DNA of 56,350 bases from Psammoneis japonica (taxonomy: Eukaryota), in assembly GCA_008632985.1 (NCBI GenBank), contig QPGO01000064.1, forward strand, positions 372,001 through 428,350, read 5' to 3'. The position numbers were made by a program, and so were the translations under genes. Below, in pieces: positions 1 through 56,350 of this stretch. The stretch's first letter is position 1, and each line of letters begins with the position of its first letter. Under the pieces are notes generated by a model that had not been told where the DNA came from, made no database searches, and saw nothing but the letters and a program-made list of their open reading frames with translations.

Positions 1-3000
1 GTGCCGGGCGTGCCCTCCTGCTTCTTCATCTGGCTGCTCAAGCAGAGACCTTTTTCCCAACAAGAGCCCACCAAATCACAACAACGCCAACACAACTCCG
101 CTTGCTCACATTGTGCACAGCTCTTTTCAATCTCAACAACAAGACCCTGGCACAGCAGCTGTGGCAGTGTGGTGCTCAGCCACTCTGCTTTTGCACCATG
201 ACTCTGAGCCTCTCCTCTCCTCCTGCCACACCACCACACAGTGCACTGCCACATGGCAGCTCCTTTGACGCACATTTGTGCTTGACAAGAAGTTCTGTCA
301 ACAAGAAACAAAAGTTTTGCACATGTGGTTGGACTCTCCACAGGTGTTGCAGTTCTTCAAAAACCAACCAAGGTGGCCACTGCAACCCAAAAGCACTGAA
401 TGATGATGTTTTGACACTGGCTCATTTTTAGCCACAAATCTGGTGCTGTCGAAGCTCTCAGTGTTGGGCTGACAGTTGATTTTTTCCAGTGGTCATGGAT
501 TTGCAATGTTTTGTTTTGCAGCCCAGCATCTCATTCAGAGTTGATTCATTTGTTTAGAAGAGCATTGGTTTGTGGTTCTTCCCCATTGCATTTTTTTGTT
601 TTCTGCTGCATGTTTGTCTCTTTGTTGCATCATGCACCACGAAGCTCAGCTGCCAACCCATTGTTTGCACAACAATGGCACACCCCTGTTACAATCTGCT
701 GCACCCTCATCACATGACTGACAGCAACAAAAAAAACTCTCCTTTTGAAATGAGCTTGTCCAACCGAGCCACCCTCCGTTTGCGACAGCAGATGGCACAG
801 TGTGCAAACTTCTTGCTGAGCTCTTGCTTTTTTCTTTGCACCCAACATCAATTTGCACTCCAGAGCCTGACTCACAATGTCAAGCAGCCCCCACAAAACA
901 GCCATGTCATCATTCAATGTTTGTCATCATTCACACTTCCTGCTGCTGTGCATGCTTGTCAACTCACTTTTGACCTCATCATCACAGTGCAATTTGACAA
1001 ATTCTGACATCAATCCAGATCTCACAGTGTGGGTCAATCTGTGCCTCATTCAGCACCACTTTCAAGCTGCTGATTGATGATGAAGGTGCTGCAAACACTT
1101 TTGGGGTGCCAAGTCATCAGGGCCAAGTTGGCTGCAAAATTGTTTGATTTGGTGTTTTTGTTGTTTCGGGCGGACCATGCACTTGCACACTCCTGCACTC
1201 TGTTTTGGCTGTGGCAGGGAGCAGATTTCTGCAAGTGCACACCAAATCATGTCTGCTGTCTGTGCAGCTCTTCTTTGTTGCCCTGTGAATGCACGAGCTG
1301 TGTCTCTCTTGCAAAGAACCGCAGAGAGTCATTCAGAAGCCATGCTTGTTGAAGTGCTGGTGTGCCAACTTGGAGAAAAGGATGAGAGGGCTCTCTACAA
1401 AACCAAGACTCCAGGACCTGGGCCACATGAGTGGCAGTTGCAGCAAAAGCTTTGGTGACAGAAAACTCATTTGGTGTTGAAACTTCATGCAAAGTTCAGC
1501 ACAGACAGACAGATGGCAGCAGCAGCACATTTCAACAACTGCATCATCAACAAAATTGGCTGCGATTTCTCACTTGACAACTCATGGCAGGAAAGCTTGA
1601 GAGACAAGGCTGCAAGCCTCCAAAAAATGTGTGGTGTGCAATGAACAAAGCTTGGTTTCATGTTTCTGACTTGTGCCTCAGCAAAGCCTCTCTCGCAGGA
1701 TCCGTTCTTGCTTGAACTTTGGCTCATGATGAAATGGAAGAGATGGCTTGCCTGTTCATTGCGCTTGTTTCAAAAATGCCACTGCAAATTTCTCCACTTC
1801 CCTCAAGCCATTTTGCCAGTGCAAAACAAGTCCATGTCTCTGGCACTCCTGGCATGCTGCATGCTGAAGTTTTGCTCACCCACTGCCGCTCAGCAACCAA
1901 ACCTTTGAATGAGCCACTCTGTGAAGTTTGGGAAGTCAAACCCACTGCTGTTGGGCACAGCCAATTCCACTGGATCAATCTTGCAATGCTTGGCCACAGT
2001 TGGTGCAAAGTCTCATCTGGGAGTCACCACAGACCACCAGTGCTGCTCTCATTGGTTGGCACCAGCATGGGATCTTTGCACTCTGGACAAACCAGGGAAG
2101 TCAAGTCTGCTGCTGCTGGGGACAAGGTGACATGGGGCAACAGTGCCACAAGAAGATCAACCTTGCAATGATCAAAAAGCAAAAAATCAATCTCTTTTTC
2201 AAAAACAGGTGCACTGCGTCCAATTGAGCAGTGCTCAACAATCAACATCTGCTGGCTGCCCAACAAACCAGGGTTCACAAATGAAACACACTGGCGGTTG
2301 GTGATGAAGACCAGCAAAACAACTCACTCAAATTGACTCAAATGACTTGAAACTTTTAAAGCCACAATGTGACAAAAGGCTTTTTTAAAAGAGCTGGTCA
2401 CTTTCAAAATGACACAGGTGACAATCACCAGACCAGCTGGCTTGGCTCCATGGAAAAAAGGGGACACATCATCACCACATGAAACAACACAAAAACACAG
2501 AATGCATCCACGCAGCACACAAACAATGATGGCGCACCACAGGAAGGCACCAACAAAACCAGGGCTCCGCAAACACCAACAAAGAAAAGCTGCTGGGAAG
2601 GCAAAGCAGAGATCAGAAGTGTGACATGGGAGCAGGCAGCTTGCAGCAAAGAACAAATGCTGGCACTTTTTTGCACTTTCTTCATTTCTCCTTGAAACTC
2701 AGACAAAGCTGACAAAAACAGCCGCCCTCCAAGGACAAGAAACAAAGTGCTGCTGCATTGCATGCAGGTGAGCAGAAATGGTGGCATTGTGCCATGTTTG
2801 TCAAACAAAACATGCCACCAATGACTTCTCTGTTGTCTTCTCTCATGGATTGCCGTTGCATTGCACACAATGAAAAGCTGCTGCAAAAACTGACTCTTTT
2901 GCTTTGTGAGACACAAAAGATTGGAGCAGCGCGCAATCCTGGCAGCACAGCCAAGAACACCAAGATGCAAAACAGGCTTTGAGAGACAATGGGACAGCAG

Positions 3001-3876
3001 CTTGAAAAGCAAAAGGAGCAAAGGCAATGCAATGCCAGCATGAGATGAGAGCATGCACCAAACATCAAACATTGCGGGAAAAAAAAAGCAAACATTGTTG
3101 AAAACAAAAACTGTCACAAAGTGGGTGCACAACAGCTGACAAACAAACAACTCAAATGATTGTTTGCATGCTCCAGCCAATTGACAGCAACAATTGATGA
3201 GACTGTTGCTTTGCAATTTTGCCAGCTGCAAAAAATGCCCACAGAAGCTCGCAATGACTGTGCTGTGGACATGGGCGAAAATTCGTCTTCTTGTCAAGAG
3301 CCCATGCACACTGTGAGACCAAATTTTCTTTTGTTTGGTTTCCCACTTTGCAACTCAGTTGGTTGTGAAAATTCGCTCATTTGCAACAAACGAGAGCTTG
3401 ACAAGAAAACACAGCCAAGCTCCCTCCAATCAAAAGCAAAGAGAGTTTCAGCTCTGAACAAGAGCAGCCAGCACTGCACTCTCATCAGAGATGCTTTTTT
3501 GTTTCCCAAAGACGAGAATCACTCTCAACAACAAGAGGACTCTGGCACAGCTTGCAGCACCGCGCTCAGCTGCTGCTCTCCCACCTCTCCCACCAAGCCT
3601 GCTGCCACAAGGCAGAGGTGTGTCATGCAAAATTTTGCTTTGCCCCTCCATTTCCAGGTGGTGCCAGGGGGTGGGCTGACAGATTCAGCTGGGGAATTGC
3701 CCGATCACATCACAATCTTATGAGATTTCAGGCATTGCACCTGCAGAGGCAGAGACAGATTTCAGGCATTGCACCCGCCGAGGCAGAGACGGACTCATTC
3801 AGATCAACAGAAAAAGAGAGCGTGATGTCAACGCATCTCGTGTTGAGAGAACAGCAAAGAAGAACAGCTGGCTTGA
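1..3876. other. TpA-depleted, CA/TG-rich degenerate block (probable decayed repeat/TE DNA)
   Basis: Only about 6 TA dinucleotides seen in 3.9 kb (429, ~555, ~1396, ~2356, ~2386, ~3719). Stacked six-frame ORFs are C/H/Q-rich and nearly Tyr-free, with no recognisable domain. Confidence 0.85.
3723..3790 (+). repeat. 34-bp tandem duplication
   Basis: agatttcaggcattgcacctgcagaggcagagac followed by agatttcaggcattgcacccgccgaggcagagac. Confidence 0.85.
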
Positions 3877-4109
3877 CGTAATCTTGACGCAATCCTTTGG
3901 TATACTTCTACAGGAGTCTACGTGATCTGATTTCTGCCACGTAAGACGAACGTCGCGCAGTCAACTTGCTGGTGTCAGGCTGACGTTGACGATCGATGTT
4001 GAATTTTGAAAATTCGGACCCTCACTTTTTTCTCTCGCACTCATTGTTGTTGCGTTGCGCTCCACCTATCACCATTTTCTTTATCTTAGCATCCCTATCC
4101 TATCTTACC

Positions 4110-23798: not shown

Positions 23799-26700
23799 TC
23801 AAGCTCGAGAGATGACGCTGACCTTCGAGGTGCTGCAGTCAACACGGATCGTATCCCCATCCTAAATAGTGAAAGCCCCAAAAGGAAACAAAAGGAGTAA
23901 CGCTTGATAAGTGCAATGACACGCAAGGCTAAACACAAATCCAATGCGTCAATGAACCTCGTACCTTGAATTTGTCAGTCGCCGACTGAGTTCCGACGAC
24001 AGCTGGGATTCCGTACTCTCTCGCAACAACTTTAAAAAAGAAAGCAAGTGCAGGTGGAGAGGTAAGTTACAGAAACTATCAACAGCTCGATATCCAATCC
24101 TTTGGGACGCAGCTTTACTTACTTGCAGCATGACTAAGCATGCCCCCATAGTCAGTACAGATCCCCGCACATAGGCCGAGGACACAATTGAAAGAGGCCG
24201 AACACGAGAAGGTAACGACTACATCACCTTTCTTGACTTTTTTAAGGTCTCCATCATTCAACACAACGCAACAAGGGCCTTCAATCACTCCTGCAGATGC
24301 GGCAAGCCCCTTGACTGCGTCAGGATTGTTTTCAATGTCCTCGTCCTCGTCTTCGCCACCCTGTCCTTCGTCCCAAACACCACGCAACAAGCCAGTGTGA
24401 ATCGCACCCATGGTTCTACGAATGTTTGGAGGGAGCAGCATCGGATCTGGTTCCGGAGGAGGAACTCCAAGAGTTCTGGGAATCGCGTTCACGTCCGCCT
24501 GGATAATGTAGTCATATCTCCTTTCAAGCTCTCGCGGTGTCGGAACATCGACGGGCCCAATACGTACTCCGCTCTGGTCGGACAGCAAACTCAGGTCACC
24601 ACGAAGCAACGCAATCGCTTCATGCTTTCGAGTCACACACAAATGCTCGGCTTTGTAGATGACGCCATGTTCGACCAAACGGCGACCTCCTTCAAGCATG
24701 CCACGTCGGCACAAACCGATACCCGACAAGTCTGTCCAAAGACCACGCTCGTCTCGCATTCGGAAGAAACGGCGTCCAACATCCAACACGGCGTCAAACT
24801 CTTCATGTTTGTCAGCCGGCAGGGTGTCTTTCCATTCCTTGGCTGTTTCCAACACACGAGCTTCCGCTTTATGAAATGCGTCGGGGTCCTCTTTTGTTCC
24901 AGAGTACACTGTGTTGAGAAAGAACGACGGCGTCTCAACGAGGGTCGGAGTAATGAGATCGTATGACCCGGCCAGCCTCCAACTACGCGGTCATCACAAG
25001 AAAGGGTTAGGGTGGCTCATTGATACACAGTCGATGACGCGCTAAGACTTACCCGTAGCGACTCATGACTTGTCTCATGACTTCACCGAGCTCGCCAGGA
25101 AGGTGCAATAAACAATCAACGGCCCATGCAGCTTTGCTCTCCTCGACTTGCAACAGAGCCATGGCCTCATCGGACTGAACAAGAAGCTCGTACATTCTGG
25201 CCAAGAGCGGATCGTCGCGATTTAAAAGCCCCCTTGATTCAGGCGAGGCGCTCTCCAAGAGTGCCAAGGTTTCCATTGGGTCTTTCTTCATTAAGGCAGC
25301 CATACTATTCATGAAATCGCCGACCACAACAAACGCCGGAAAGGTATAAGTGTGATGGAGCTTCCAGAATTCGGCGGCCAAGTCAAAACAGCGAGCCACG
25401 TGCTTGACCAAGTCTCGATGACTGAGCGCAGAGGGGTTGACAGCAAGCAACTCATCATGAAGAGCTTTACATTCGGGAATAAAGAAGTCTCGAAACTCGC
25501 GATAATCATCTTCGTATAGCTTCTTGCTCCAGTAAGCCTCGGCAGCGCGTTCCAACGCATCCGACGGGGGACTCATGCTCGGTTGCGTGTAAACAAACTG
25601 ATGCACGTAGCGGAAATTAATGTCACTGATCAAACAACCGGTGCGCCGCCCGCGTTCCGTTGAATAGGCCAAGCTGTACGTATCTTGCATCCATGGGGAA
25701 AAAGGTCGCGGGAAGTGTGTTGGATCAAATGTCCAGAATCCTTCACCGGGCGGCAAAAACGAAAGCGACCCGGTACTTCCAAGCGTCGTGATGGGCCTCG
25801 ACTGCAATATCTTGAGATTGCCATTAGCGTCCACTGCCCATTCAATATCCTGAGGACGGTTGTAGTAATCTTCAACTGCGCGGGCCATTGCAGTAATCTG
25901 CAAGAGTTGTGTATTGGTGAGAACCGGTCCCTCAGCAACATCATCACCCAACGCAACCTTGACGACGCCGTCCATGTTTCGAGCTCGGACAAACTTGTGG
26001 GTCTGTTTGCTCAACTGTTGATATACTAGTTTCTTGGAGAATTTGTCCAACACATAACGATCCGGAGTGATCTCGCCACCAACAAGGCCTTCTCCCTGCC
26101 CATAGACGGCTTCAATCATGACTTCATTGGCTGAACCCCAGAGATTCTGAATACCAAAACAGAATGATAAAGAAAAGGAGAGTATGGTGAGAGCGCGCAA
26201 GAAATATTCAAAGAGGCCCTCCACAACGCATATTTTTTGTTCTGACATACCTGAGAGAAGCAAACTCCCGCCGCCTGGGCTTCCACCATTTTCATCACCA
26301 GCACTCCCATCTGAGGAGGCTTCATCTTTCCTGGACGATACGTCGAGGGCTCGTTTGTCAACGGCTCGTCCTTGACCTCCAGAAAGGTGGAGTGCCTGGC
26401 ATAGTCCACAATATGGGGCTTAAACATGCTTGCCCAGCACGATTTGATGCTCTCGCATACTTCTTCCGTTGTACTCTTGTAGAGATATGTGTCGTACTGG
26501 CCAGCAAAGGACTGAGAAGCCAAATCTTCAGCTGATCCAGAAGAGCGAACCGCCACCATTGTACCTCCTCCCAAGGAGTCCAAGAAAGTTTCAAGGTTCC
26601 CCACCACGTCTTCGTTGAGAGGTGTATCCATGATTTTCGTGCGAATCTCGGCGAGCTTCTTTTCCGTCTCCTCGCGAATCGTTTCATCGGCGAGGTTGCT

Positions 26701-27021
26701 TGCAAAGACCTCCTCCACCAAATCAACGACACCGGCATTGTCAATATGCATGGAGTAGACATAGGTCGGTAAAATAAAAGCCGGAGGCACGTCGAGTCCA
26801 TGCTTCATGAGACGCCAGCATTGCAAGGCCTTGCCTCCTACCAACGCCAGAGTCGCATCTTCGTAGCTAGCCAACGGACAACCGAGACTTGCATCGAACT
26901 TCGCTTTATCCAAAGTTGCTTGGAGCTCGACCAACTTCTGACGACTTGCAATAGACGGCCGACCGTCATTGGGCAGCACCCATGATCCACGTTGCATAAA
27001 CGCACTTTGACGTCGAGGCAT
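23799..27021 (-). CDS. PEP-utilising enzyme with rifamycin phosphotransferase/PigC-like architecture (PPDK_N, central domain, C-terminal His-swivel), multi-exon
   Basis: VGGKA, AVRSSGSAED..SFAGQYDT, GQGEGLVGGEITPD, PQDIEWA, LQSRPITT, TDYGGMLSHAA|VVAREYGIPAVVG|DGDTIRVD. Four GT-AG introns. Confidence 0.88.
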
Positions 27022-44018: not shown

Positions 44019-46384
44019 GACTACAACAACATAAACCAGTGCAACAAGGCGCAGACTTGTTTCCAATGCTCTTTGGTTGCCGTCGAAATCACAACGTCAC
44101 CGCTGCAAAAGAGTGGGGCATGTTTGCAGCGAATTTCGCCAATCACTCGCGAGCCACGCTGCGTTTATTGACTATGAACACCGTAAGGTTATATTTCGAT
44201 TCGAATCATCCACACTTTCATTCACCCTTAAGTAAATGTCCGTTGAAGATTTGTGTATATAGTAGTTTTATAAAAATATATAAAGTTATTTATGGCATCA
44301 CGGAGTGGCGCGCCATCGTGCGTTGCGGTTTTGATTTGCTTTTGTCTGAACATCACAGATCAAGCAGCAGCGCTCTGAACGAGACAAGCACATGATGCCC
44401 CGACCCCGACCCCCGACCCAGACGATGCATTGCGCAAGATCACATGGTGCATTGCAGGCAAACAAACAGACTCCTTCTGCATCTGCAGGGGTGCTGGAAC
44501 ATCAGAGCGTGTGCTGCAGCAGTGATCGGGGGGGGCCGTGCCTTTCTCACGCAATGGTTTTTGGATGCGTGCTCCAGACGCAGGTGAGCCGGATGAAAAA
44601 CGGACCTTGTTGTCACGAGGTTTGACTCAAGAAAATTGCAATTCATTGTTTTTTCAGGCAAAATGCATCTGTGTGCCTGTGCAGGAATGCACTGGCGGCT
44701 GACAAGCTCCAAAAGCAAGTTGCCAAAAAGCTTCGCCCTGGCCACAACGACAACGAAGTGCGGCACACAGCTTCCGCTTGTTCAGCCATCCATGATGATG
44801 TCATGGTCAACCAACCCCAACAGTCAACAACAACGGAAGCACCAGGCATCTGTGTGGTGCCACAGGGGAGGCACCCTGTGATGGTTGGTTGTTGAGCCAC
44901 ACCCCAAGAGACACAACTCAGGGCAAAGTTGTTTCCTCGGGGGTTGGGCCAAGATGAGTGGAGAGCTTTTCAATGTGTTCTTGTGGCAAACTCATGCTTG
45001 AAATCAGCCATCAGAGCTTCATTTCCCAGTGATGAAAATCTTGCAGAAGTGCGCAGAACAATTGTTTTTGTCAGACTCAACAAGAAGAAAAAACTTCATC
45101 TTAGAATCACCCTTTGTTTCGGCCATTTGCACTGTTGGAAAGAGCTTTTTCTCCACATTTCAGTCATGTGTTTGTTGCAAAAAGTTGAAAAAATGCATTG
45201 AGGCAATCACAGAACAAAGGTGTGAAGGCACAACCATTTGATTTTTGGCAAAGATTTCACATGCTCGTGGCTGGTTGACAACAAGCCCACAACCCCCACA
45301 CAACCCAAATCAGTGAATGACTTTGAGCCAAAGCAAGCTGAAGAATGGCCAACAAAATCCCCCAATTGAAATTTCTGCTTCAGCACAAAGACAGCCAAAT
45401 GGCTAATTCCCCCCAATTGAAGTTTCCACTTTGGCACAAAGAAAGCCAAATGGCCAACGTTGCAGAGTTTTTGGGCACAAGCAAAATCAAGTTGGCAAAA
45501 CAGCCAGGATGTCAAACATGAAATCACCACTCCATTTCTGCGCCAGCCAGGCAACTGCTGCAGCATTCAGATGCTCACTTCAAAGTGTCAATCGGTCTTC
45601 TCTCTCTTTGCTTTCAATGCTTGTGACAATTTTTCAGATCTCTGCATGGGCACATCCAAAATGTGCAATGCACACCCTTTGCAGCATGGACAAATGAGCC
45701 CATCTGGAATTTGCAGTCTCCTTTCAATCCACATGAGCACATGCCAAAAACTTGTGGACAGAACAAAAGGCCCTTGAGCACACAAAATGAGAAGAGAGCA
45801 GATGGCACCAAACTTGTTTTGAACCTTGGGCTCTCAAGTGGCATCGTTTTGCTGCTCTGCAGCTGGCTGGAAGCTTGAGTGTTTTTTTTTTGTGACTTGC
45901 AGCTTGAGGCTTGCTGGCACATGAGCGTGCGCAATGTTGCCTTTAGAGCCTGCTGCTTGCTGGAGCTGAGGAGATGTGGACAGCTGTCTGGGTGCCCAGG
46001 CTTTGTCCATCAGATGCTCAAACTCGCGGTTGTTTTCTCTTTTGTGCTGTGGCCACTTGGCTTCTTCCATCAAGAAAGTCCACAGCAGCCCAGGCCATCC
46101 TGAGCACTGACAAAGCAGCTCATGCAAAACTTTTCTGCCTGTTTTCCTCCCCCCCCCCCACAGAGCGGTTCTTGGCAACAGCGCCCCCTGCACACCAAGC
46201 TGCCATGGGTGGGGACGCCGCAGAAATCACGCAGGTGCCATTTTTTTAGCAAAATCGCCCTCTCTGCCCAAATGGACCATGGCGGTCGTCGACGTCGTGA
46301 CAAAAAAAAAGTGTCATCATCACGATTCACAAGACTCAACGTGCGGTCACAACGCGCAAGGCCGGGCTTCCAACTCCCGCCACA

Positions 46385-46780
46385 GACGCGTTCCAGACGT
46401 AGGTGGGAATCCGTGTGACATTGGGCCCGTAGACTTCTACGTGCGAGCTCCGTAGTAAAATTATACGGTAATTAAAATGTCAATGATCGCCAACAGAAAA
46501 TGAGGCAATTTTGCGAACGCACAAACTCGCACATGATTGAAGTACATCATTTTTTACTTAGCCAGTTACATTCTTCAGACATTGAAGAATGTAACTGGCG
46601 CATTATTGTTTCTATAAATTTGTTATATAAAACGTCTGGGGCTTCGCAAAACAGCGAGTCTGGACAATTTTTTTTAAATATCACACGTAGAAATCTACGT
46701 ACGAAACATACGACGGATGATAAAAATTATTGTTGTCACACGTCAGCACTACGAGCTCCCACCTAGGGCTGGAACGCGTC
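46385..46780 (+). mobile_element. MITE copy A (24-bp TIR, 4-bp TSD CACA)
   Basis: caca|gacgcgttccagacgtaggtggga ... tcccacctagggctggaacgcgtc|caca. Confidence 0.92.
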
Positions 46781-47439
46781 CACAACGTTCGCCAAGCGAC
46801 CACCAAGTCAACCTGCCGTTTCTCACCAAATCGCTTTCGCACCCTCAGAATCACTGTTTCAGACAGCCCCTTTGAAGTGTTGCATCCGCCATCATCTCAT
46901 TGGGTGGAATGCTGTGAGGGGCCATCTCGAACAACAACATGGTTGAGATGTTAAAAACAATGTCGACACCTGACCAACAAACATGCCGTTTTGCACCATG
47001 TCGCTTTCGCACACTCAGGATCAACGTGAAAAGATGTGCATTTGATGCCATCATGTCCACAGTCATCGAATCAGGCGAGGGGCTCCGAGTTGCAATTTTT
47101 GGCAGCAGTTTCATCAAGCAATTTTGAAATGTCTGCGCATGACCTCATGTCTCGTCTGAACATCACACCGTCATCCAAATGGCACCTTCACGAGAAACAG
47201 TTTCATTGCACGCTGGAAACAAAGACCACAGAGACTCAATCTATCAGCAAACAACTTGCTGTCATGATGGAAGCTCTGAGAAAAGGATTTTTGGGCTCTT
47301 GGACTCTGAGATGTTGAGAGCGATCCATCCCGAGTTCACGACAAGCAACAAGCATTCCAACACTGCGTTTTTGGCCATGTCAACAGGAAGAGCGCCACCC
47401 AAGAGAGGCATGTTGTGGAGAGCAATGGGTGGTTGGACA

Positions 47440-48490
47440 TGGTTGGAGAAACACGGTGCTGCAGCAGCAGTCGTGGCAGACGCGTTCCAGGTCTAGGTGG
47501 GACCTCGTACTGCTGAACTGTGACATCGACAGTTTTTTGAGTCTCGTCGTATGTCGCGCACGTAGATTTCTACGTGATTTTTTCGACATTTTGTGTCATT
47601 TTACGGTGCACTTGTTGAGCGATCCGTCCAACAACTTTTGACATTTTTTGTTGCAGCGCGATTCTACAATGTCCTTAAGAATCGCGCAGGGCAGGCGAAG
47701 TTGCAAAAACGTCGAGTGGCAAGAGGCACAATTGTGCCACAAACTTGGCCGTTTATTTGATGTTGAAGACAAATGTGTCCATTAATTAAATTCTCGTACT
47801 ACGGAGCTCGCACGTAGAATTCCATGGGCCCAATGTCACAAGGAGTCCCACCTGGGGCTGGAATGCGTCGGCATTTGATGAACAAGGACAAGCAGCGGCC
47901 GAGGAGGACAAGGTTTGGACATGCAAGCGCTGGCACGACATTCACAAAGTGGGTGCAGACATTGTGTGTGATCCCAATGCATTGGCAATTGGCGCCGGCA
48001 TGGAGGAACACGCCAGCTGCAAGTCGACTTCATTGACGCAACAAAGACCATCAAGGAACGGTGTCCGCACGCAAAGGTCATCGGTGGCAGTTTGAACCTT
48101 TTGTTTGGATTCCGAGGAGCAATGAAAATCCGCGAATCAATTCATGCGGTGTTCTTGAATGATGCAATCCTTGAATCTGGAATGGATTTTGGTGTCATGA
48201 ACGCGAAGGAAATGCTTGCTGTCAATGAATTGGACGACGACACCAGGGTGCCATGCGAGAATCTCGTGCTCAACAAGACCGAGGATGAGACAGACGAGAT
48301 GCCAAAGCAAACAGAGCACAAAAGAGCATGCATTGATGCCAGAAAGAAGGGCTTGCCTCTGCCTTGGAAGCCCCATGGCAAACCTGCAAACAAGCCATGC
48401 CTTGCACTCTCTTGTGACAAAGTCATCTCCAAACCTGCCATCGAACCGCCTCTGCCGATGCCAACATCAGAAGCTGCAAAGAATCATGTC
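47440..48490 (+). pseudogene. METH: B12-dependent methionine synthase fragment (pterin-binding domain)
   Basis: KHGAAAAVVA[MITE]FDEQGQAAAEEDKVWTCKR...DPNALAIGAGMEEH...VDFIDATKTIKERCPHAKVIGGSLNLLFGFRGAMKIRESIHAVFL...SGMDFGVMNA. Confidence 0.9.
47479..47869 (-). mobile_element. MITE copy B (TSD GGCA), inserted in the METH pseudogene
   Basis: ggca|gacgcgttccaggtctaggtggga ... tcccacctggggctggaatgcgtc|ggca. Confidence 0.92.
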
Positions 48491-48589
48491 CTGAACAGAC
48501 AAGTGGAAAGAACAAAATGGCAGAGCTCATTGTGCTTTGAAATGAGAACTTGGTTCCACTGTGAAATGGGCGTGCATTGGCACTCGACG

Positions 48590-49030
48590 GATTTTTACAC
48601 GGTGAAGTGCGGCAAAAGAGAGAAAGATGCTGTTGATCATTCTGCAACTGGAGAGACAGCTGAAGTGGTGGATGCATTGTCAGAGACGTGATTGATTCTG
48701 CTTTTGATGTTGGTCACTTTTGGTGTCATGATGGCCGCAGTGTCACTCCAAAACTGCAAACGAGACATCAAGGATTTTCAGTCGTGATTGCACGGTGAAG
48801 CATGGCAAAAGCAACAAAAGCGCTGTTTCACGTTCTTTCCAACTGCGGAGTCAGGTGACTTGGTGGATGCATTGTCAGAGACGCGAGAGCCTCTGCTTTT
48901 GATGTTGGCCAGCACTGGCATGACAAAAGTTGCAGCAACACTCCAAAGCTGCAAACGAGCAACGGCAGGATTTTCGAAAAATCGAAATGTTTTCAGTCGT
49001 GATTGCACGGCAAAGCACGGGAAAATGGTG
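48590..49030. repeat. Degenerate ~195-bp tandem repeat (~2.2 units)
   Basis: cacggtgaag...tggtggatgcattgtcagagacg...ctgcttttgatgttgg...ctgcaaacgag recurs. Confidence 0.75.
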
Positions 49031-49199
49031 GTCACTTCATCGATCTCGTTGACGACAAATGCAAGGCAAATGAAAAAGTTGCCCCCCACTTTAAGACCAC
49101 CGCAACACCCTCCATCGACTGAGGTGACTCTCGTTTCGATCCAAGAAAATTCGTCTCTGCATGATTTCTGCAGCGTCCCCTCCCACAGCTGCAGCCAAG

Positions 49200-49598
49200 G
49201 ACGCGCTCCAGCCCTGGGTGGGACTCCGTGTGACATTGGGCCCGCAGAATTCTACGTGTGAGCTCCGCAGCACGAGAATTTAATCAATGGATGTGTTTGT
49301 CTTCAACATCAAATGAACGGCCAAGTTTGTGGTGCAATTGTGCCTCTTGCCACTCAACGTTTTTGCAACTTCGCCTGCCCTGTGCGATTCTTAAGACATT
49401 GTAGAATCGCGCTGCAACAAAAAATGTCAAAAGTTGTTGGACGGGATCCGCTCAACAAGTGCACCGTAAAATGACACAAAATGTCAAAAAAATCACGTAG
49501 AAATCTGCGTGCGCGACATACGACGAGACTCAAAAAACTGTCGATGTCACAGTTCAGTGGTGTGAGGGCGGTCCCACCTGGCAGACCTGGAACGCGTC
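49200..49598 (+). mobile_element. MITE copy C (TSD CAAG), close inverted relative of copy B
   Basis: caag|gacgcgctccagccctgggtggga ... tcccacctggcagacctggaacgcgtc|caag. Confidence 0.92.
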
Positions 49599-50264
49599 CA
49601 AGACTGTTTGCTGAGCTGCCAGCTGAGATGTCAAACTTGAGGTTGTGAGCTCCCAGAGCTGCAAGTCACAGGGCAGAGCATGTTTCTGGAACTGGCAGCA
49701 CAATGCAGAGCCCTTCCTCAGCTTTCCGGGGTGCGCCCAGACCTCCAGAACACTGGCTGGCCTGTCCCAGCTCCAGGTGATCTGCTTTTCATTGTGCTGG
49801 ATTGTCTGCACAGCCAGTTTTCAGCGCCAGACATTTTTGTCTCCACCCGGCAGAGCTCGCACTTTTTGGCTTTTTGTGAACATCAATTGTTTCGATGATG
49901 CAATGCACTCATGATGTCAATGCTCATCTGCAACAACTGAGGTGTGTGTTGCGATGCAGGAAGAATCGTGTCAGTTGGCATTCAATGTTTTTCTGGCAAT
50001 GTGTGGAACAATGCTGCTGACTTCTGTGAACATGTGCCATCCACCCAACACCACCCAACACACGCACCAACTGTGACGCAGCAGGCCCACACCACTGCTG
50101 TCGCCACTCCACAACCCCCTCTTTGCCCTTGTGGTCACATGGAACCGTCTGCTCCTTTTGTTTCAAAGGTGTGACATTGTCGCCACAATGCGGTTGCGGC
50201 TCTAAAGAGTTGCTGTGTCATTGCGGACAATGCCATCTCTTCACATTCTCTTGTTTTGAACTCG

Positions 50265-52300
50265 GCAAGGTCCTTGAAAGAACTGTTTGTTTTCCTTCCT
50301 TGAAACAACGTGTTTGATTCCTTGAAAAGACATGTTTGTTTTCCTTAAAATGACGTGTTTGTTTTCCATGAAACAACATGATTGTTTTCCTTGAAACGAC
50401 GTGTTTGTCATGTTTGTTTTCCTTGAAAAGACGTGTTTGTTTTCCTTCCTTGAAACAACATGATTGTTTTCCTTGAAACAACATGTTTGTTTTCCTTGAA
50501 AAAACGTGTTTGTTTTCCTTGAAAAGACATGTTTGTTTTCTTTGCAATTTGAGTGGACATGTTTGTTTTCCTTGAAAGAACTTGTTTGTTTTCCTTCCTT
50601 GAAACAACACATTTGTTTTCCTTAAAAAGACATGTTTGTTCTCCTTGAAACGACATGTTTGTTTTCCTTGAAAAGACGTGTTTGTTTTCCTTGAAAAGAC
50701 ACGCTTGTTTTCCTTGAAAAAACATGTTTGTTTCCATTGAAACCACTTGTTTGTTTTCCTTGAAAGAACATGTTTGTTTTCCTTGAAACAACCTGGTTGT
50801 TTTCCTTGAAATGACGTGTTTGTTCATCTTGAAACAATGTGTTTGTTTTCCTTGAAATGACTTGTTTGTTTTCCTTGAAACAACATGTTTGTTTTCCTTC
50901 CTTGAAAAGGAAATGTTTGTTTTCCTTGAAACGACATGTTTGTTTTCCATCAAATGACATGTTTGTTTTCCTTGAAATGACATGTTTGTTTTCCTTGAAA
51001 CAACATGATTGTTTTCCTTGAAACAACATGTTTGTTGTCCTTGAAAGCACTTGTTTGTTTTCCTTCCTTGAAATGACACATTTCATTTTCTTTGAAAAGA
51101 CATGTTTGTTTTCCTTGAAACGACATGTTTGTTTTCCTTGAAAGAACATGTTTGTTTTCCTTGAAACAACATGGTTGCTTTCCTTGAAATGACGTGTTTG
51201 TTCATCTTGAAACAATGTGTTTGTTTTCCTTGAAATGACTTGTTTGTTTTCCTTGAAACAACATGTTTGTTTTCCTTCCTTGAAAAGGAAATGTTTGTTT
51301 TCCTTGAAACGACATGTTTGTTTTCCATCAAATGACATGTTTGTTTTCCTTGAAATGACATGTTTGTTTTCCTTGAAACAACATGATTGTTTTCCTTGAA
51401 ACAACATGTTTGTTGTCCTTGAAAGCACTTGTTTGTTTTCCTTCCTTGAAATGACACATTTCATTTTCTTTGAAAAGACATGTTTGTTTTCCTTGAAACG
51501 ACATGTTTGTTTTCCTTGAAAGAACATGTTTGTTTTTCCTTGAAATGACGTGTTTGTTTTCCTTGAAAGAACATGTTTGTTTTCCTTGAAACAGCTTGTT
51601 TGTTTTCCTTGAAACGACATGTTTGTTTTCTTTGAAACAACATGTTTGTTTTCCCTGAAACAACATGTTTGTTTTCCTTGAAGAGACATGTTTGTTTTCC
51701 TTGCAATTTAAAAAGACATGTTTGTTTTCCTTGAAAGAACTTGTTTGTTTTCCTTCCTTGAAACAACACGTTTGTTTTCCTTGAAAAGACGTGTTTGTTT
51801 TCCTTGAAATGACGTGTTTGTTTTCCTTGAAATGACGTGTTTGTTTTCCTTCAAACAACATGTTTGTTTTCCTTGCAATTTAAAAAGACATGTTCGTTTT
51901 CCTTGAAAGAACTTGTTTGTTTTCCTTGAAACAACATGTTTGTTTCACTTGAAACAACATGTTTGTTTTCCTTGAAATGACATGTTTGTTTTCCTTGAAA
52001 AGACATGTTTCTTTTCCTTGAAACAATGTGTTTGTTTTTCTTGAAACAACATGTTTGTTTTCTTTGAAACAACATGTTTGTTTTCCCTGAAACAACATGT
52101 TTGTTTTCCTTGAAGAGAATGTTTGTTTTCCTTGAAAAGATATGTTTGTTTTCCATGAAACTGCTTCATTGTTTTCCTTGAAACCACTTGTTTGTTTTTC
52201 TTGAAAGAACCTGTTTGCTTTCCTTGAAAAGTCACGCTTGCTTTCCTTGAAAAGACATGTTTGCTTTCCTTGAAAAGACATGTTTGTTTTCCTTGAAAAG
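50265..52300 (-). repeat. 23-bp satellite array with a 378-bp higher-order duplication
   Basis: Unit tgtttgttttccttgaaa+(caaca/cgaca/tgaca/agaca/gaaca). Identical ORFs at 50839 and 51217 are offset by 378 bp. Confidence 0.95.
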
Positions 52301-52311
52301 AAAAAAAAACC

Positions 52312-53520
52312 GTGCCCATGCACAGATTGCCACTGCAAAGTGCGCCAGATGGGGTTGTCACACTTTTGACCAGTGCGCTCAACGCCATCAGATGGCTCAA
52401 ACGACTTGTCCTGGCTCAATGAGCCGGTGGCCAAGACAAAGAAGGTCTCTGACTTTCTCAAGGGTGTCTCCGACCCTGGGTTGGAGACTGGTGAGAGTGC
52501 AGTGGACGGAGATCCAACAAAGCCAGCAGATTTCAAAGCATGCCAGCAGCATGTGAAGACTCTGGCAGAGAATGCCAAGAACCGCAATGCTGGTGCTCAC
52601 GGAGTCACATCCGTCCAATGCTGCAACAACCGGCACAGAAACCCTGGTGGCAAGCACCAACCTAAAAAGGACAAGCCCAGGATCTGGGCAGGCCATTGCC
52701 CCATTGAAGAGTGGAGTGCTCTTGGCCGTCCTGAGCAAGAGCAAGTTGAGAAGCTCCACAAGGCCAAGAAAGCCGAGAAGAAACACAAAGCCTCAGCTGC
52801 ATCCTCGGAGGCTGAGTCAGTCAATGCCGACACTCGTGCTGTGAAAAAGGTGGCTGTTGCCAAGCCTCAACCTGCTGATGAACAAAAGGACTCCAAAGAG
52901 TCAGGTGGGCTGCCTGCTGCCAATGCAGGCACGCAGTTTAGACGCAGTGCACATGAGAAACCTCAGAAGGAGGAGTGAACAGTTGCGCCAGCACCAAAAG
53001 GCATGGAACCAACTGTTGCTGCACCTGCTGGCACTGTGCATTCATCCAGGCGATTCCCAACAGACACACGTGTCTCTTTGTCATCTGCTGGACATTCAGA
53101 TGGTGAAGCAACCAACAACTTGGACTCGCACGCTGATGCATGTGCTGTTGGGTCCAATTTTGTCATGTGCTCTGATGTCGACTGCACTGTTGCAGCACAT
53201 CCTTGCTCCAAAGAGTGCGCGCCAATGAGGAATGTTCCCATTTGCATGACTGCTGCCATGTGGGTTGATCAAACCAATGGACAGCCACACCTGCTGCCAG
53301 TCCATGAGGCTGTGTTTTTTGGGGACAGAATGACTGACACCCTGCTGTCCACGACACCCCTCGCCAGTTTGATCCCAACAGCACACACTCTGTTGTTTTC
53401 CTTGACTCAAAAATCTGGGTGCCTTTGCACATGCGAGGTGTTGCTTTGGTCTTTGACCCACATGATCCAACTCAGAAGGATCTGGAGAACCTCCCCCGGC
53501 TGGAACTCGCATCACCCCTC
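52312..53520 (+). mobile_element. Decayed Ty1/copia (CoDi-like) gag-protease remnant
   Basis: EPVAKTKKVSDFLKGVSDP...DFKACQQHVKTL. LDSHADACAVGSN...VPI...HEAVFFGDRMTDTLL. Confidence 0.8.
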
Positions 53521-53529
53521 ACTGTGCTT

Positions 53530-55110
53530 TGAAGTGGGGATGCTTGCGCAACCGCTGGAAAGACATTGTCAACGTGATGATCTTTAAAGAACCAGGGAAC
53601 AACAAAGTCCATCGACTGCAGGTCACAAACATGTGTGAAGCAGACCATCAAATCATCACGAGTGTGAAATGGCAAGAATTGGCACAGCAAATGGAGCACC
53701 ACTGGATGTGCAATCCCGGCATTTGTGGATGCCGCTCATTCCTTTCTGCCCAGACTCCTGTGTTTCTTGAGAACTTGACATCAGAAATGTCGTGAGCTTC
53801 TCGAAAGACAGCGCCAATGAGTGATGATGATTGTGCCTCTTGCTTTGACAGAAACATTCCCGTGCTGGTCGGACTTTGCTCTTGGAGAACAGCGTGCACT
53901 CACAAGTTGTTGAAGTTGACATGGGCACTCTGTGTCATGCCAGGCACTGGCTGCAAACCCTGCTGGGCTCAATTCAGCTGAGTTGTTCCCACACAGAAGA
54001 TTTGCCTCTGTGCGGCACAGGGCAAGGTGGTGGAAATTCCCCATGGCATTGGAACACCCTCTGCAACCGTCTTTTTGACATTTTTGATGCCAGAGCGATT
54101 GGAGCTCATTTTGAAACCCCTGACGGCCAATTTTACATCCGAGTCTTTAACCGAGGATGCGCAGATGATGCGTCCAAACAAGCCAATGACTGCCGAGCAA
54201 GTCCTCTGCCTTCGGCGTTTGATCTGTCCTTTTCTTTGCAACAGGAGAGTCAACTCCCAAGTCCCACTCTGGCACTCAACTCTCAGACTCAGTTGAAGAA
54301 ACTCCAACACAAGAGTGACACTGGCTGCAGCTCTTTTCCTTTGATCTTGTCCACTTGATCATGCGGGAACATGGAGATGCTGCTGTGCATGTCATCTCTC
54401 CTCAATGACCTGTGTTCTCCCTGACTCAACCTTTCTCCCTGAAGAGTTGCTCACCACTCAACAGAAAGCAATGCGGGTCACATTTGCCAAATGTGGGTGC
54501 AACTGAAGCACAAAAAAACTCATCTTGTGTGGTCCACAAGCTCTTGGCAGCAATGGTTTTTGATCGCCAGACATCAAACAAGGAGTTGCTCAATTGCAAA
54601 TGCTGCTCAAGCATTCCAGAGGTGTCACACATCTTCATCTGGGAGAGGATCAACCCCACAAATTGCTGCACATTGCAGTCTCATGGATCTAGCTGAACTT
54701 GGGGACAGGCGTGAGCTTCTTGTGGGGTGCAGATGCTGTTCTCCCGCACATGGAATCATGTTGGTTTGCATCCGTTTGTGCGTTCTTGCACGGGATTCAA
54801 GGGAAAGTTTGCCTGACACACTCTGGAGTCCTCCCTCTCCAATGAGACAACAACCAGCACATCATGGATGCTGCACTCCAGCCCCAACTCTTTTCTCAGC
54901 GTGAGGTCCAATGGACCAATTGTTGTTTGCATCTGCAGGTGTTGTCCTTGTCTGATGTTGCTCTGGCAGATGACTTGACATTGGATGCTGCAAAGATGGC
55001 AGGAGATCCTTTGCTCCAGAGTGGTGCCAGAACTATGAACAACATTGAGCAGCAGAAACCAGAGACAAGAGCCTGGGCAGCGTGGAGAAAAGTTCTGCGC
55101 TTTCTTGTGA
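53530..55110 (+). mobile_element. Decayed non-LTR retrotransposon RT remnant (Ambal-like)
   Basis: RWKDIVNVMIFKEPGNNKVHRL..EAD, DDDCASCFDR, GTGQGGGNSP, GCADD, NCCLHLQVLSLSD, WAAWRKVL. Confidence 0.85.
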
Positions 55111-55690
55111 TGTCATTTCAAGGAAAACAAACATGTTGTTTCAAGGAAAACAAACGTGTTGTTTCATGGAAAACAAACGTGTTGTTTCAAGGAAAACAAA
55201 CATGTCATTTCAAGGAAAACAAACATGTCATTTCAAGGAAAACAAACATGTTGTTTCAAGGAAAACAAATGTGTTGTTTCGCGGAAAACAAACGTGTTGT
55301 TTCACAGAAAACAAACATGCCATTTCAAGAAAAACAAACATGTCATTTCAAGGAAAAAAACATGTCATTTCAAGGAAACAAACGTGTCATTTCAAGGAAG
55401 GAAAACAAACAAGTTCTTTCAAGGAAAACAAAGATGTCTTTGTGACGAAAACAAACATGTCTTTTCAAGGAAAACAAACATGTTGTTTTGAAGGAAAACA
55501 AATGAGTTCTTGCAAGGAAAACAAACAAGTTGTTGCAAACAAAAGAAACAAGTTGTTGCAAGGAAAACAAACATGTCTTTTCAAGGAAAACAAACATGTT
55601 GTTTCAAGGAAAACAAACATGTTGTTTCACGGAAAACAAACAAGTTGTTGCAAGGAAAACAAACATGTCGCTTCAAGGAAAACAAACATG
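55110..55690 (+). repeat. Second array of the same 23-bp satellite, inverted orientation
   Basis: Unit tttcaaggaaaacaaacatgttg. Confidence 0.95.
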
Positions 55691-55799
55691 CAAAAAAGAA
55701 AAAAGAGAAAATCTGTTGGCAGCGCTGCCAGCGAAACATGTTGTTCACAAACACATGCCTCTGACACAAAGAACACTTTTCCACGATGCTGTGTTGCTG

Positions 55800-56350
55800 A
55801 GATTGGCACCATGTTGTGCTTGCAGCCTGCTCTTGGTTTGCTTGGAGAGAGAAGGCAGATGCAATGTTCCCAACAAATGTGCTGAGGATGGCTTTGCTTT
55901 TGGAATTTGGTTGGACAACCAATGGCCACAAAACACAAGCTCGGCAAGCTCAACATTGAAAAAGAAGAAAAAGTTGAGGAGGCTGGTGTTGAGTGGCTCA
56001 TGTGGGAAAATCAATTGGGCACAATGCCCTCTCTTCTCAAGCAACTCACAAAATGGGAGGGACTTTGTAACATGCCAAGGGGCCACAAAGAGGATGGGGA
56101 GAACCTTGGAAAATGGTCAAGTGACCAATGGGATGCCACAAGGAAAAGGAAACTTGATGCTTCTCAACAGGAATGACTGAAGAAGGCCAGAGCCAAGTGG
56201 GACATTCTTGCTGAGCATCGGGAGACTGTGTTTTCTCTTCTCAAACAGTTTGTGGTGCATGAGGGAAGCTGCAAAGTGCCCCATTGTCACACTGAAAATG
56301 GAGAGAGACTTGGACATTGGCTGGACATGCAAAAGCAAGCATGGAAGGCT
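55800..56350 (+). pseudogene. Helicase-associated (HA) domain repeat gene, decayed, runs off the window
   Basis: EREGRCNVP...GIWLDNQ; WEGLCNMPRGHKEDGENLGKWSSDQ; HEGSCKVP...GERLGHWLDMQ. Frameshift and stop codon. Confidence 0.85.

Follow-up and report, generated by a model that had tools for sequence, protein, structure and literature searches.

We analysed a window of 56,350 nucleotides (nt) from the diatom Psammoneis japonica (assembly GCA_008632985.1, contig QPGO01000064.1, positions 372,001 to 428,350 of the forward strand) and focused on three copies of a transposable element of the miniature inverted-repeat kind (MITE), which we call A, B and C. The copies differ in how much of the dinucleotide TA (TpA) they retain, and where TA has been lost its place is taken by CA or TG. 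We consider it likely that this abundant, non-autonomous MITE inserted three times, independently, into a diatom repeat island that was already almost without TA, and that a regional, TpA-specific A:T-to-G:C process then acted on the lineages of B and C. The elements and their insertion signatures are as follows.

46385-46780, plus strand: MITE copy A, 396 nt, with 30 TA (observed/expected 0.89) and a CG observed/expected ratio of 1.54
46381-46384, partner 46781-46784: target-site duplication of copy A, CACA, from flank comparison and a contig joint
47479-47869, minus strand: MITE copy B, 391 nt, with 14 TA (observed/expected 0.52)
47475-47478 and 47870-47873: target-site duplication of copy B, GGCA
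49200-49598, plus strand: MITE copy C, 399 nt, with 7 TA (observed/expected 0.28) and a CG observed/expected ratio of 1.06
49196-49199 and 49599-49602: target-site duplication of copy C, CAAG
46426-46443, 46684-46701, 47559-47576, 47811-47827, 49241-49258 and 49494-49511: subterminal palindrome of the CACGTAGAA.TCTACG type, with two TA in each

A, B and C are true MITEs, with terminal inverted repeats (TIRs), target duplications, small size without a transposase gene, and high abundance. The 24-nt TIR follows the pattern GACGCGTTCCAG, three variable bases, TAGGTGGGA, and matches five of the six ends at three mismatches or fewer, where 100 shuffles gave an expectation of zero. The sixth end, at the 3' side of C, is interrupted by a 3-nt insertion. 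The subterminal palindrome lies near both ends of all three copies; the motif search returned ten matches, over both strands, at five places against 0.07 expected, and the sixth place (47811-47827) was read directly from the sequence. This palindrome is probably a transposase-binding site. The single ATG frame of at least 60 amino acids inside any copy is one of 88 amino acids in A (46500-46766), and A also carries an internal 39-nt self-complementary stretch (87%) at 46561-46599 that is not present in B or C. Two motif searches and a sensitive blastn search of the window found no further copies. DNA-transposon superfamilies with 4-bp target duplications include Sola, Ginger and Academ. MITEs of these superfamilies resemble the present copies in being short TIR elements whose duplications have no fixed sequence, in contrast to piggyBac and Kolobok, which duplicate TTAA.

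To these structural features we could add contigs from four public runs (X1-X4) of one sample, aligned to positions 46300-49700 at 80% likeness; 40 of 643 variant places and 15 of 50 joints were listed. In the three small runs, X2-X4, only high-copy DNA forms contigs, and these are thus consensus-like pieces. In run X1, 5704 contigs aligned on the stretch, with a summed depth of 38,000-212,000 over the MITE bins against 480-2,600 over the spacers, a difference of about 100-fold in a measure that is not copy number and cannot be used as such. The MITE family is clearly very abundant. Contigs from X2, X3 and X4 match copy A at 46426-46650, 46430-46651 and 46428-46674 with 0, 0 and 1 differences, and we therefore take copy A to equal an abundant family variant. 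In public collections, two metagenome-contig scans and one prokaryote-genome-contig scan gave no matches to the MITE.

The contigs also contain the empty sites of two copies. At A they join 46379 to 46780, skipping 400 nt (396 + 4) with five letters fitting either side, and at B they join 47474 to 47870, skipping 395 nt (391 + 4) with four letters fitting either side. Since these joints are exact empty sites they confirm the 4-bp duplication, and together with the TIRs and the duplications themselves they led us to accept the copies as real insertions. Among the joints listed there was none for an empty site of C. The empty-site contigs are not usable as proof of allelic polymorphism, as 80% likeness cannot separate paralogues from alleles. 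We also considered B and C as one inverted segmental duplication, which is ruled out by their different target duplications and flanks.

Alignment of B with C gave 400 columns at 90.75% identity, with 10 gap columns and 29 mismatch columns, of which 28 are transitions and one is a transversion. Grouped by dinucleotide these differences form 23 sites. Twelve are of TA type, comprising six with TA in B against CA or TG in C and six with CA in one copy against TG in the other; seven are of CpG type, with CG against TG or CA; and four are other changes, two of them beside an indel. A third of the sites (7/23) are thus CpG transitions, which run in the opposite direction and mark a second process superposed on the A:T-to-G:C changes at TA. 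Copy A aligns with B and C at its two ends alone, for some 85 nt on the 5' side and some 115 nt on the 3' side. Its interior is different, its whole-length identity is 65% with B and 63% with C, and on this sequence comparison it is a member of a subfamily other than theirs. Because A matches B and C only at its ends, its TA count cannot be set directly against theirs.

The initial annotation had compared the same three copies, over a range (46385-49598) whose limits coincide exactly with the start of A and the end of C, and all the sequence strings it quoted are present. These are gggcccgtaga in A, gggcccatgga in B (reverse complement) and gggcccgcaga in C; ctccgtagta in A and B against ctccgcagca in C; aaataaacgg in B against aaatgaacgg in C; and, as pairs with CA on one side and TG on the other, ggcacaatt in B against ggtgcaatt in C and ggacacattt in B against ggatgtgttt in C. 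It had treated the three as copies of one element, which does not hold for A.

The initial annotation had read TA as the original state at such sites, a reading that would fail if the family consensus carried CA, TG or CG there and TA were derived. Instead, both copy A and the consensus-like family contigs read TA, and sequence comparison establishes TA as ancestral and CA/TG as derived at the TA sites that these cover. As an outgroup, copy A has TA at six sites (alignment columns 16, 46, 69, 72, 309 and 364). Family contigs read T at 47687, 47720, 47729 and 47770, in 33-47% of the X1 depth and in every covering X2-X4 contig, and in element orientation this restores TA where B and C both have TG. 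At 47736, 47775 and 47777, the reciprocal sites ggCAcaatt/ggTGcaatt and ggaCACAttt/ggaTGTGttt, the contigs read A. This letter is compatible with CA too, but an X4 contig over 47636-47822 has 12 differences from B, 11 of the 12 being listed, so that at most one partner T can have changed and at least two of the three sites read TA in that contig. Across the polarised positions the TA-restoring letters make up 33-58% of the X1 depth. The CpG changes in C are polarised too: at 49259 and 49383 the letter C makes up 96% and 95% of the depth. No site with TA as the derived state was seen in the copy alignment or among the 40 of 643 variant places listed. The proposal that CA and TG are reciprocal outcomes of one ancestral TA (or CG) is thus upheld, with TA as the ancestor, at columns 16 and 46 from copy A and at two or more of the three contig-read sites, whereas column 360 is compatible with TA, CG or CA.

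With this polarity the extent of TA loss can be estimated. The ancestor of B and C had at least 20 TA, from the 14 kept in B and the six reciprocal sites, or 24 if four concordantly lost sites are included. Out of about 20 ancestral TA, A has lost about 0, B 5-6 (about 30%) and C 11-13 (about 65%), where the range for C depends on column 360 and on the 3' TIR, whose TA was split by the 3-nt insertion. Although TA occupies 10-12% of positions, it holds 13 of the 19 substitutions attributed to C and 6 of the 9 attributed to B, a binomial excess with P = 2e-9 to 2e-8 for C and P = 7e-5 to 2e-4 for B. Conservative counts give 11/17 for C (P = 3e-8) and 5/8 for B (P = 3e-4). Expressed as rates, the changes in C affected TA at 13/20 (about 65%), CpG at about 5/31 (about 16%) and other positions at about 1/290 (about 0.3%).

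Damage outside TA is essentially absent from A, amounts to three substitutions and one indel in B, and reaches six substitutions and at least two indels in C. The indel in B is a single-base insertion at 47673, a base that is missing from most family contigs. Because this damage runs parallel to the TA loss, it gives some support, though thin, to a progressive process. The suggestion that the copies form a time series is therefore sustained in part: TA loss is graded A < B < C with other damage in step, but A comes from another subfamily and time since insertion is not separated from losses that were inherited.

The damage extends to the ends of the elements. The core CCTAGG of the TIR keeps its TA at both ends of A (CCTAGG/GTAGG) and at the 3' end of B, and has lost it in three of six ends, to CA at the 5' end of B (CCCAGG), to TG at the 5' end of C (CCTGGG) and through the 3-nt insertion at the 3' end of C. 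The decay of cctagg to cctggg that had been reported is thus seen, at the 5' end of C, and the subterminal palindromes have been hit too, with one TA lost in the 5' palindrome of B and in each of the two in C. Such erosion of the TIRs would be expected to stop transposition of the copies.

Within C the outcomes do not appear to be mixed at random along the element. They read as one TG, then four CA, then eight TG, and so few runs occur in 13 of 715 arrangements (exact P = 0.018, post hoc); B has too few sites for the same test. The process had been described as strand-symmetric, which is true in that both outcomes occur across the family, but not within C, where the changes sit in strand-coherent tracts. 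These tracts would fit an enzyme acting on one exposed strand. The sites also appear to differ in how readily they change. The seven TA that C retains all belong to the 14 that B retains (P = 0.044 if 20 ancestral sites are assumed, 0.01 if 24), and since the kept TA are nested in this way and five to six sites were hit independently in both copies, the data suggest that hot and cold TA sites exist. We also tried an A>G bias on the plus strand of the window irrespective of element orientation, but set it aside: it stands at 14/19 (P = 0.064) and vanishes when B is credited with independent hits at the four concordant sites.

The surroundings of the MITEs hold far less TA than the copies do. 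Two blocks of the window are almost without TA.

44300-56350: TA-erased, CpG-poor, gene-free island that holds A, B and C, with TA observed/expected 0.02-0.04 outside the MITEs
1-3900: second TA-erased block

In both blocks the observed/expected ratios are 0.02-0.05 for TA, 0.05-0.7 for CG and 1.4-1.9 for CA/TG, against 0.44-0.72 for TA and about 1 for CG in the gene DNA between them (4-44 kb). By this measure across the window, TA erasure is confined to the repeat blocks and the neighbouring genes are spared. Next to the MITEs we counted 3 TA in 1184 nt to the left of A (observed/expected 0.04), 2 in the 698 nt between A and B (0.04) and 2 in the 1330 nt between B and C (0.02), with CA/TG ratios of 1.5-1.7 in the spacers and CG ratios of 0.37-0.74 in the flanks. 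The MITE copies are either younger than the erasure of the DNA around them or have been less exposed to it.

The spacers at 46781-47478 and 47870-49199 are themselves repeated DNA, with many contigs only 80-90% alike, and comparison of their paralogues with the window shows CA-TA and CA-TG differences at several places, 47166 and 47204-47205 among them, which is the same spectrum. The borders of the erased DNA are sharp, at about 3900 and about 44300; beyond a dense TA cluster at 44166-44291, which is in part a TA microsatellite, the following 1100 bases contain a single TA. CG observed/expected varies among erased blocks within 1-4000 and 52001-56350 (0.25, 0.37 and 0.05) and is 0.66-0.71 at 44-52 kb, and because TA loss is uniform over the same blocks, the losses of CpG and of TA seem to be uncoupled in degree. 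The B-C spacer contains two to three tandem units of about 195 nt each, 76-89% alike, at 48582-49025. A second, satellite-like array inside the island, at 50263-50996, has about 30 units of 23 nt with a GC content of 0.33, TA observed/expected 0.03, and TG at 1.79 against CA at 1.18; its translation yields spurious 'ice-binding beta roll' matches in Pfam. Long open frames occur on both strands of the island, such as 50622-51689 (355 amino acids), without a real family match, and they arise because TAA and TAG have been erased. A Pfam search of the island frames found no family, low-complexity matches aside.

The genes at 4-44 kb encode, by Pfam, a protein kinase, an MBOAT protein, two methyltransferases, pyruvate phosphate dikinase, GST and an HMG-box protein. 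Of the 120 hits listed for the MBOAT frame, all that carry a name come from diatoms, with 54-62% identity, and include Amphora, Seminavis, Fistulifera, Nitzschia and Pseudo-nitzschia. These hits are the basis for calling the host a diatom, one that has no near sequenced relative in the collection searched; a protein-atlas query gave 'Eukaryota' as the taxon, with clusters dominated by animals. The N-terminal domain of the pyruvate phosphate dikinase is split over two overlapping minus-strand frames, 26116-27021 and 25049-26263 (within 25049-27021), which could be due to an intron or a frameshift.

How might TA be lost in this way? In the process that we propose, a change of the top-strand A would turn TA into TG and a change of the bottom-strand A would turn it into CA, while a slower, ordinary decay of CpG to TG or CA would run alongside. 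The driver would be an enzyme, most likely a DNA adenine deaminase that targets TpA and works on a single strand at a time, in line with the proposal for the alga Bigelowiella natans (Mettrop et al., bioRxiv 10.64898/2026.01.13.699255). It may act in episodes, the grades of TA loss would then mainly reflect age, and erosion of the TIRs would immobilise the copies. The initial annotation had called the process ongoing, which goes beyond what the comparison of copies shows.

A different history would leave the TpA process real but deprive us of a time series of new insertions. Here B and C would have been copied, as subfamilies, from sources that had already lost TA. Such a history accounts for the four sites at which B and C share a derived TG where the family contigs read TA, for three sites of the alignable 3' arm at which A has TA and B and C both have TG or CA, and for the 42-67% of X1 depth that carries B's letter at each listed TA site, from which many other copies must share that letter. 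It fits poorly with the five to six sites that show opposite outcomes of one TA, since these were hit independently in B and C after their split. A tally of six discordant and at least four concordant double losses matches the expectation for independent hits whose two outcomes are equally frequent (50:50). The damage to the TIR core also differs between B and C, with CA in one and TG in the other, and damaged ends should hinder further copying. We regard this history as unlikely on balance, although it may contribute. A further reading replaces age by position or chromatin: A, nearest to the gene border at about 44.3 kb, would be shielded and C, lying deepest, would be most exposed. The order of the copies along the window is indeed the order of their TA loss, but the DNA beside A, on its left and towards B, is as erased as that around C. 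A is 2 kb away from the island border on its left, no exposure gradient is visible at the scale of these copies, and a position effect on the grade of loss at that scale is unlikely; the reading as a whole strikes us as improbable.

Two further explanations question the substrate or the direction of change. If CG were ancestral at the reciprocal sites, decay of methylated CpG would produce the CA/TG differences, and a CA-TG pair alone cannot separate a TA from a CG ancestor. Seven B-C differences are of this kind, and CG observed/expected does fall, from 1.54 in A through 1.06 in C to 0.37-0.74 in the flanks. Yet A reads TA and not CG at columns 16 and 46, six sites are still TA in B, the consensus-like contigs restore TA at 47720, 47729, 47770 and at least two of the three reciprocal positions, and CpG decay is unable to remove TA from an island with an observed/expected ratio of 0.03. 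The TA readings in A, B and the contigs rule it out as the sole cause, so that we think this explanation very improbable and keep CpG decay as a parallel second process. The reverse direction, in which the copies gained TA through a C-to-T process at CpA like that of repeat-induced point mutation (RIP), has nothing that we found in its favour. The TA-rich copy is A, the abundant family variant; C, the most diverged, is the poorest in TA and ranks first for indels and for CpG loss; and the old flanking DNA is almost without TA. Outgroup A, the TA counts and the family contigs refute it, and we give it next to no credence.

Several points nevertheless weigh against insertion into an erased island followed by progressive TpA-specific change. 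The process is known here from the comparison of copies, and not from an enzyme, a chromatin mark or change followed in real time. There are three copies, and as A is from another subfamily they provide two comparable points and one indirect one. No independent neutral clock is available, with one substitution per copy outside TA and CpG, and such clock as there is consists mostly of CpG decay. The shared losses, at four plus three sites, may have been inherited from a mutated source copy that was still mobile, in which case the grade would in part not measure time spent at these loci. The runs and nestedness tests were both chosen after the data had been seen, and an effect of context, with A hit more often before a pyrimidine, had the same direction but was not significant (12/42 against 7/38, P = 0.31). 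Polarity is lacking at columns 86 and 116, where B keeps TA, and at CpG columns 157 and 288, and at column 360 A and B read CA where C reads TG. The contigs used for polarity also come from one sample, possibly the source of the assembly, and from the listed fraction of their variant places.

The changes can be set beside known systems that alter dinucleotides in repeated DNA. In Neurospora and other ascomycetes RIP converts CpA to TpA through C-to-T changes and makes DNA AT-rich. The MITEs and their island share with it dinucleotide-specific transitions that disable repeated or mobile DNA and leave genes alone, but the direction is the opposite, TpA going to CpA or TpG (A:T to G:C) with TA disappearing. 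Membership of RIP is excluded, as TA is lost and CA/TG gained instead of TpA being created from C:G-to-T:A changes. Methylated-CpG decay yields the same product dinucleotides and is the slower companion here (7/23 of the sites that differ between B and C, and a drop in CG observed/expected from 1.5 to 0.4); its substrate, however, is CG and not TA, which leaves the sites with TA in A, B or the family contigs unexplained. Enzymes of the APOBEC/AID group, responsible for kataegis, act on C in DNA, and those of the ADAR and ADAT families on A in RNA. The clusters made by single-strand deaminases of this sort resemble C in their same-strand runs in a fixed dinucleotide context (four CA, then eight TG), although an A-deaminase working on nuclear DNA at TpA is a proposal only.

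The closest parallel is in B. natans, and the loss of TA described here is a new instance, in a diatom, of a process described once before. That preprint reports TpA-specific hypermutation of integrated giant-virus and virophage DNA in mutation-accumulation lines, in which A>G or T>C changes, without exception at TpA, made up 210 of 211 giant-virus and 20 of 20 virophage mutations; the mutations arose in some lines only, and the authors proposed a DNA adenine deaminase (bioRxiv 10.64898/2026.01.13.699255). It also describes clusters of TA-poor, CA+TG-rich windows in the B. natans genome, whose TA-poor coding sequences are enriched for reverse-transcriptase and DDE domains (bioRxiv 10.64898/2026.01.13.699255). 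Both cases have changes at TpA that give TpG or CpA, foreign or repeat DNA as the target and the rest of the genome spared; there the process shows up in some lines only, and here it seems to run in strand-coherent tracts. They differ in that B. natans is a rhizarian alga in which the process was measured live, whereas in the diatom it is deduced from comparing copies. The erasure reported in that text is mild (observed/expected 0.45 in the viral region) and is nearly complete here (0.02-0.04), and the targets here are transposon islands and 0.4-kb MITEs, with CpG decay alongside. Full-text searches of the literature did not find TpA erasure described in diatoms and returned the B. natans preprint; for diatom MITEs they found nothing relevant.

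It is quite possible, though we put it forward tentatively, that diatoms defend themselves by a TpA-specific editing of DNA that is directed at repeats, turns A into G on a single strand at a time and acts episodically on new insertions until almost all TA is gone, disabling their ends. If this is true, the occurrence of the same signature in a rhizarian alga would mean that the system is either ancient in eukaryotes or has spread among algae, and abundant MITE families would serve as a dosimeter for the targeting rule and the enzyme. Young, abundant copies such as these are the best natural substrate for measuring relative rates, hot and cold sites and strand tracts, and the tracts in C suggest single-strand chemistry. 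The absence of TAA and TAG from erased DNA, with the long false reading frames that follow, may mislead repeat dating and gene prediction. A process that takes TA out of mobile DNA mirrors fungal RIP, and so far one preprint, on an unrelated alga, has documented it. Here the transposon loses its own ends to the process, and the diatom case, far more complete and with MITEs as targets, suggests that such a genome defence is more widespread among algae.

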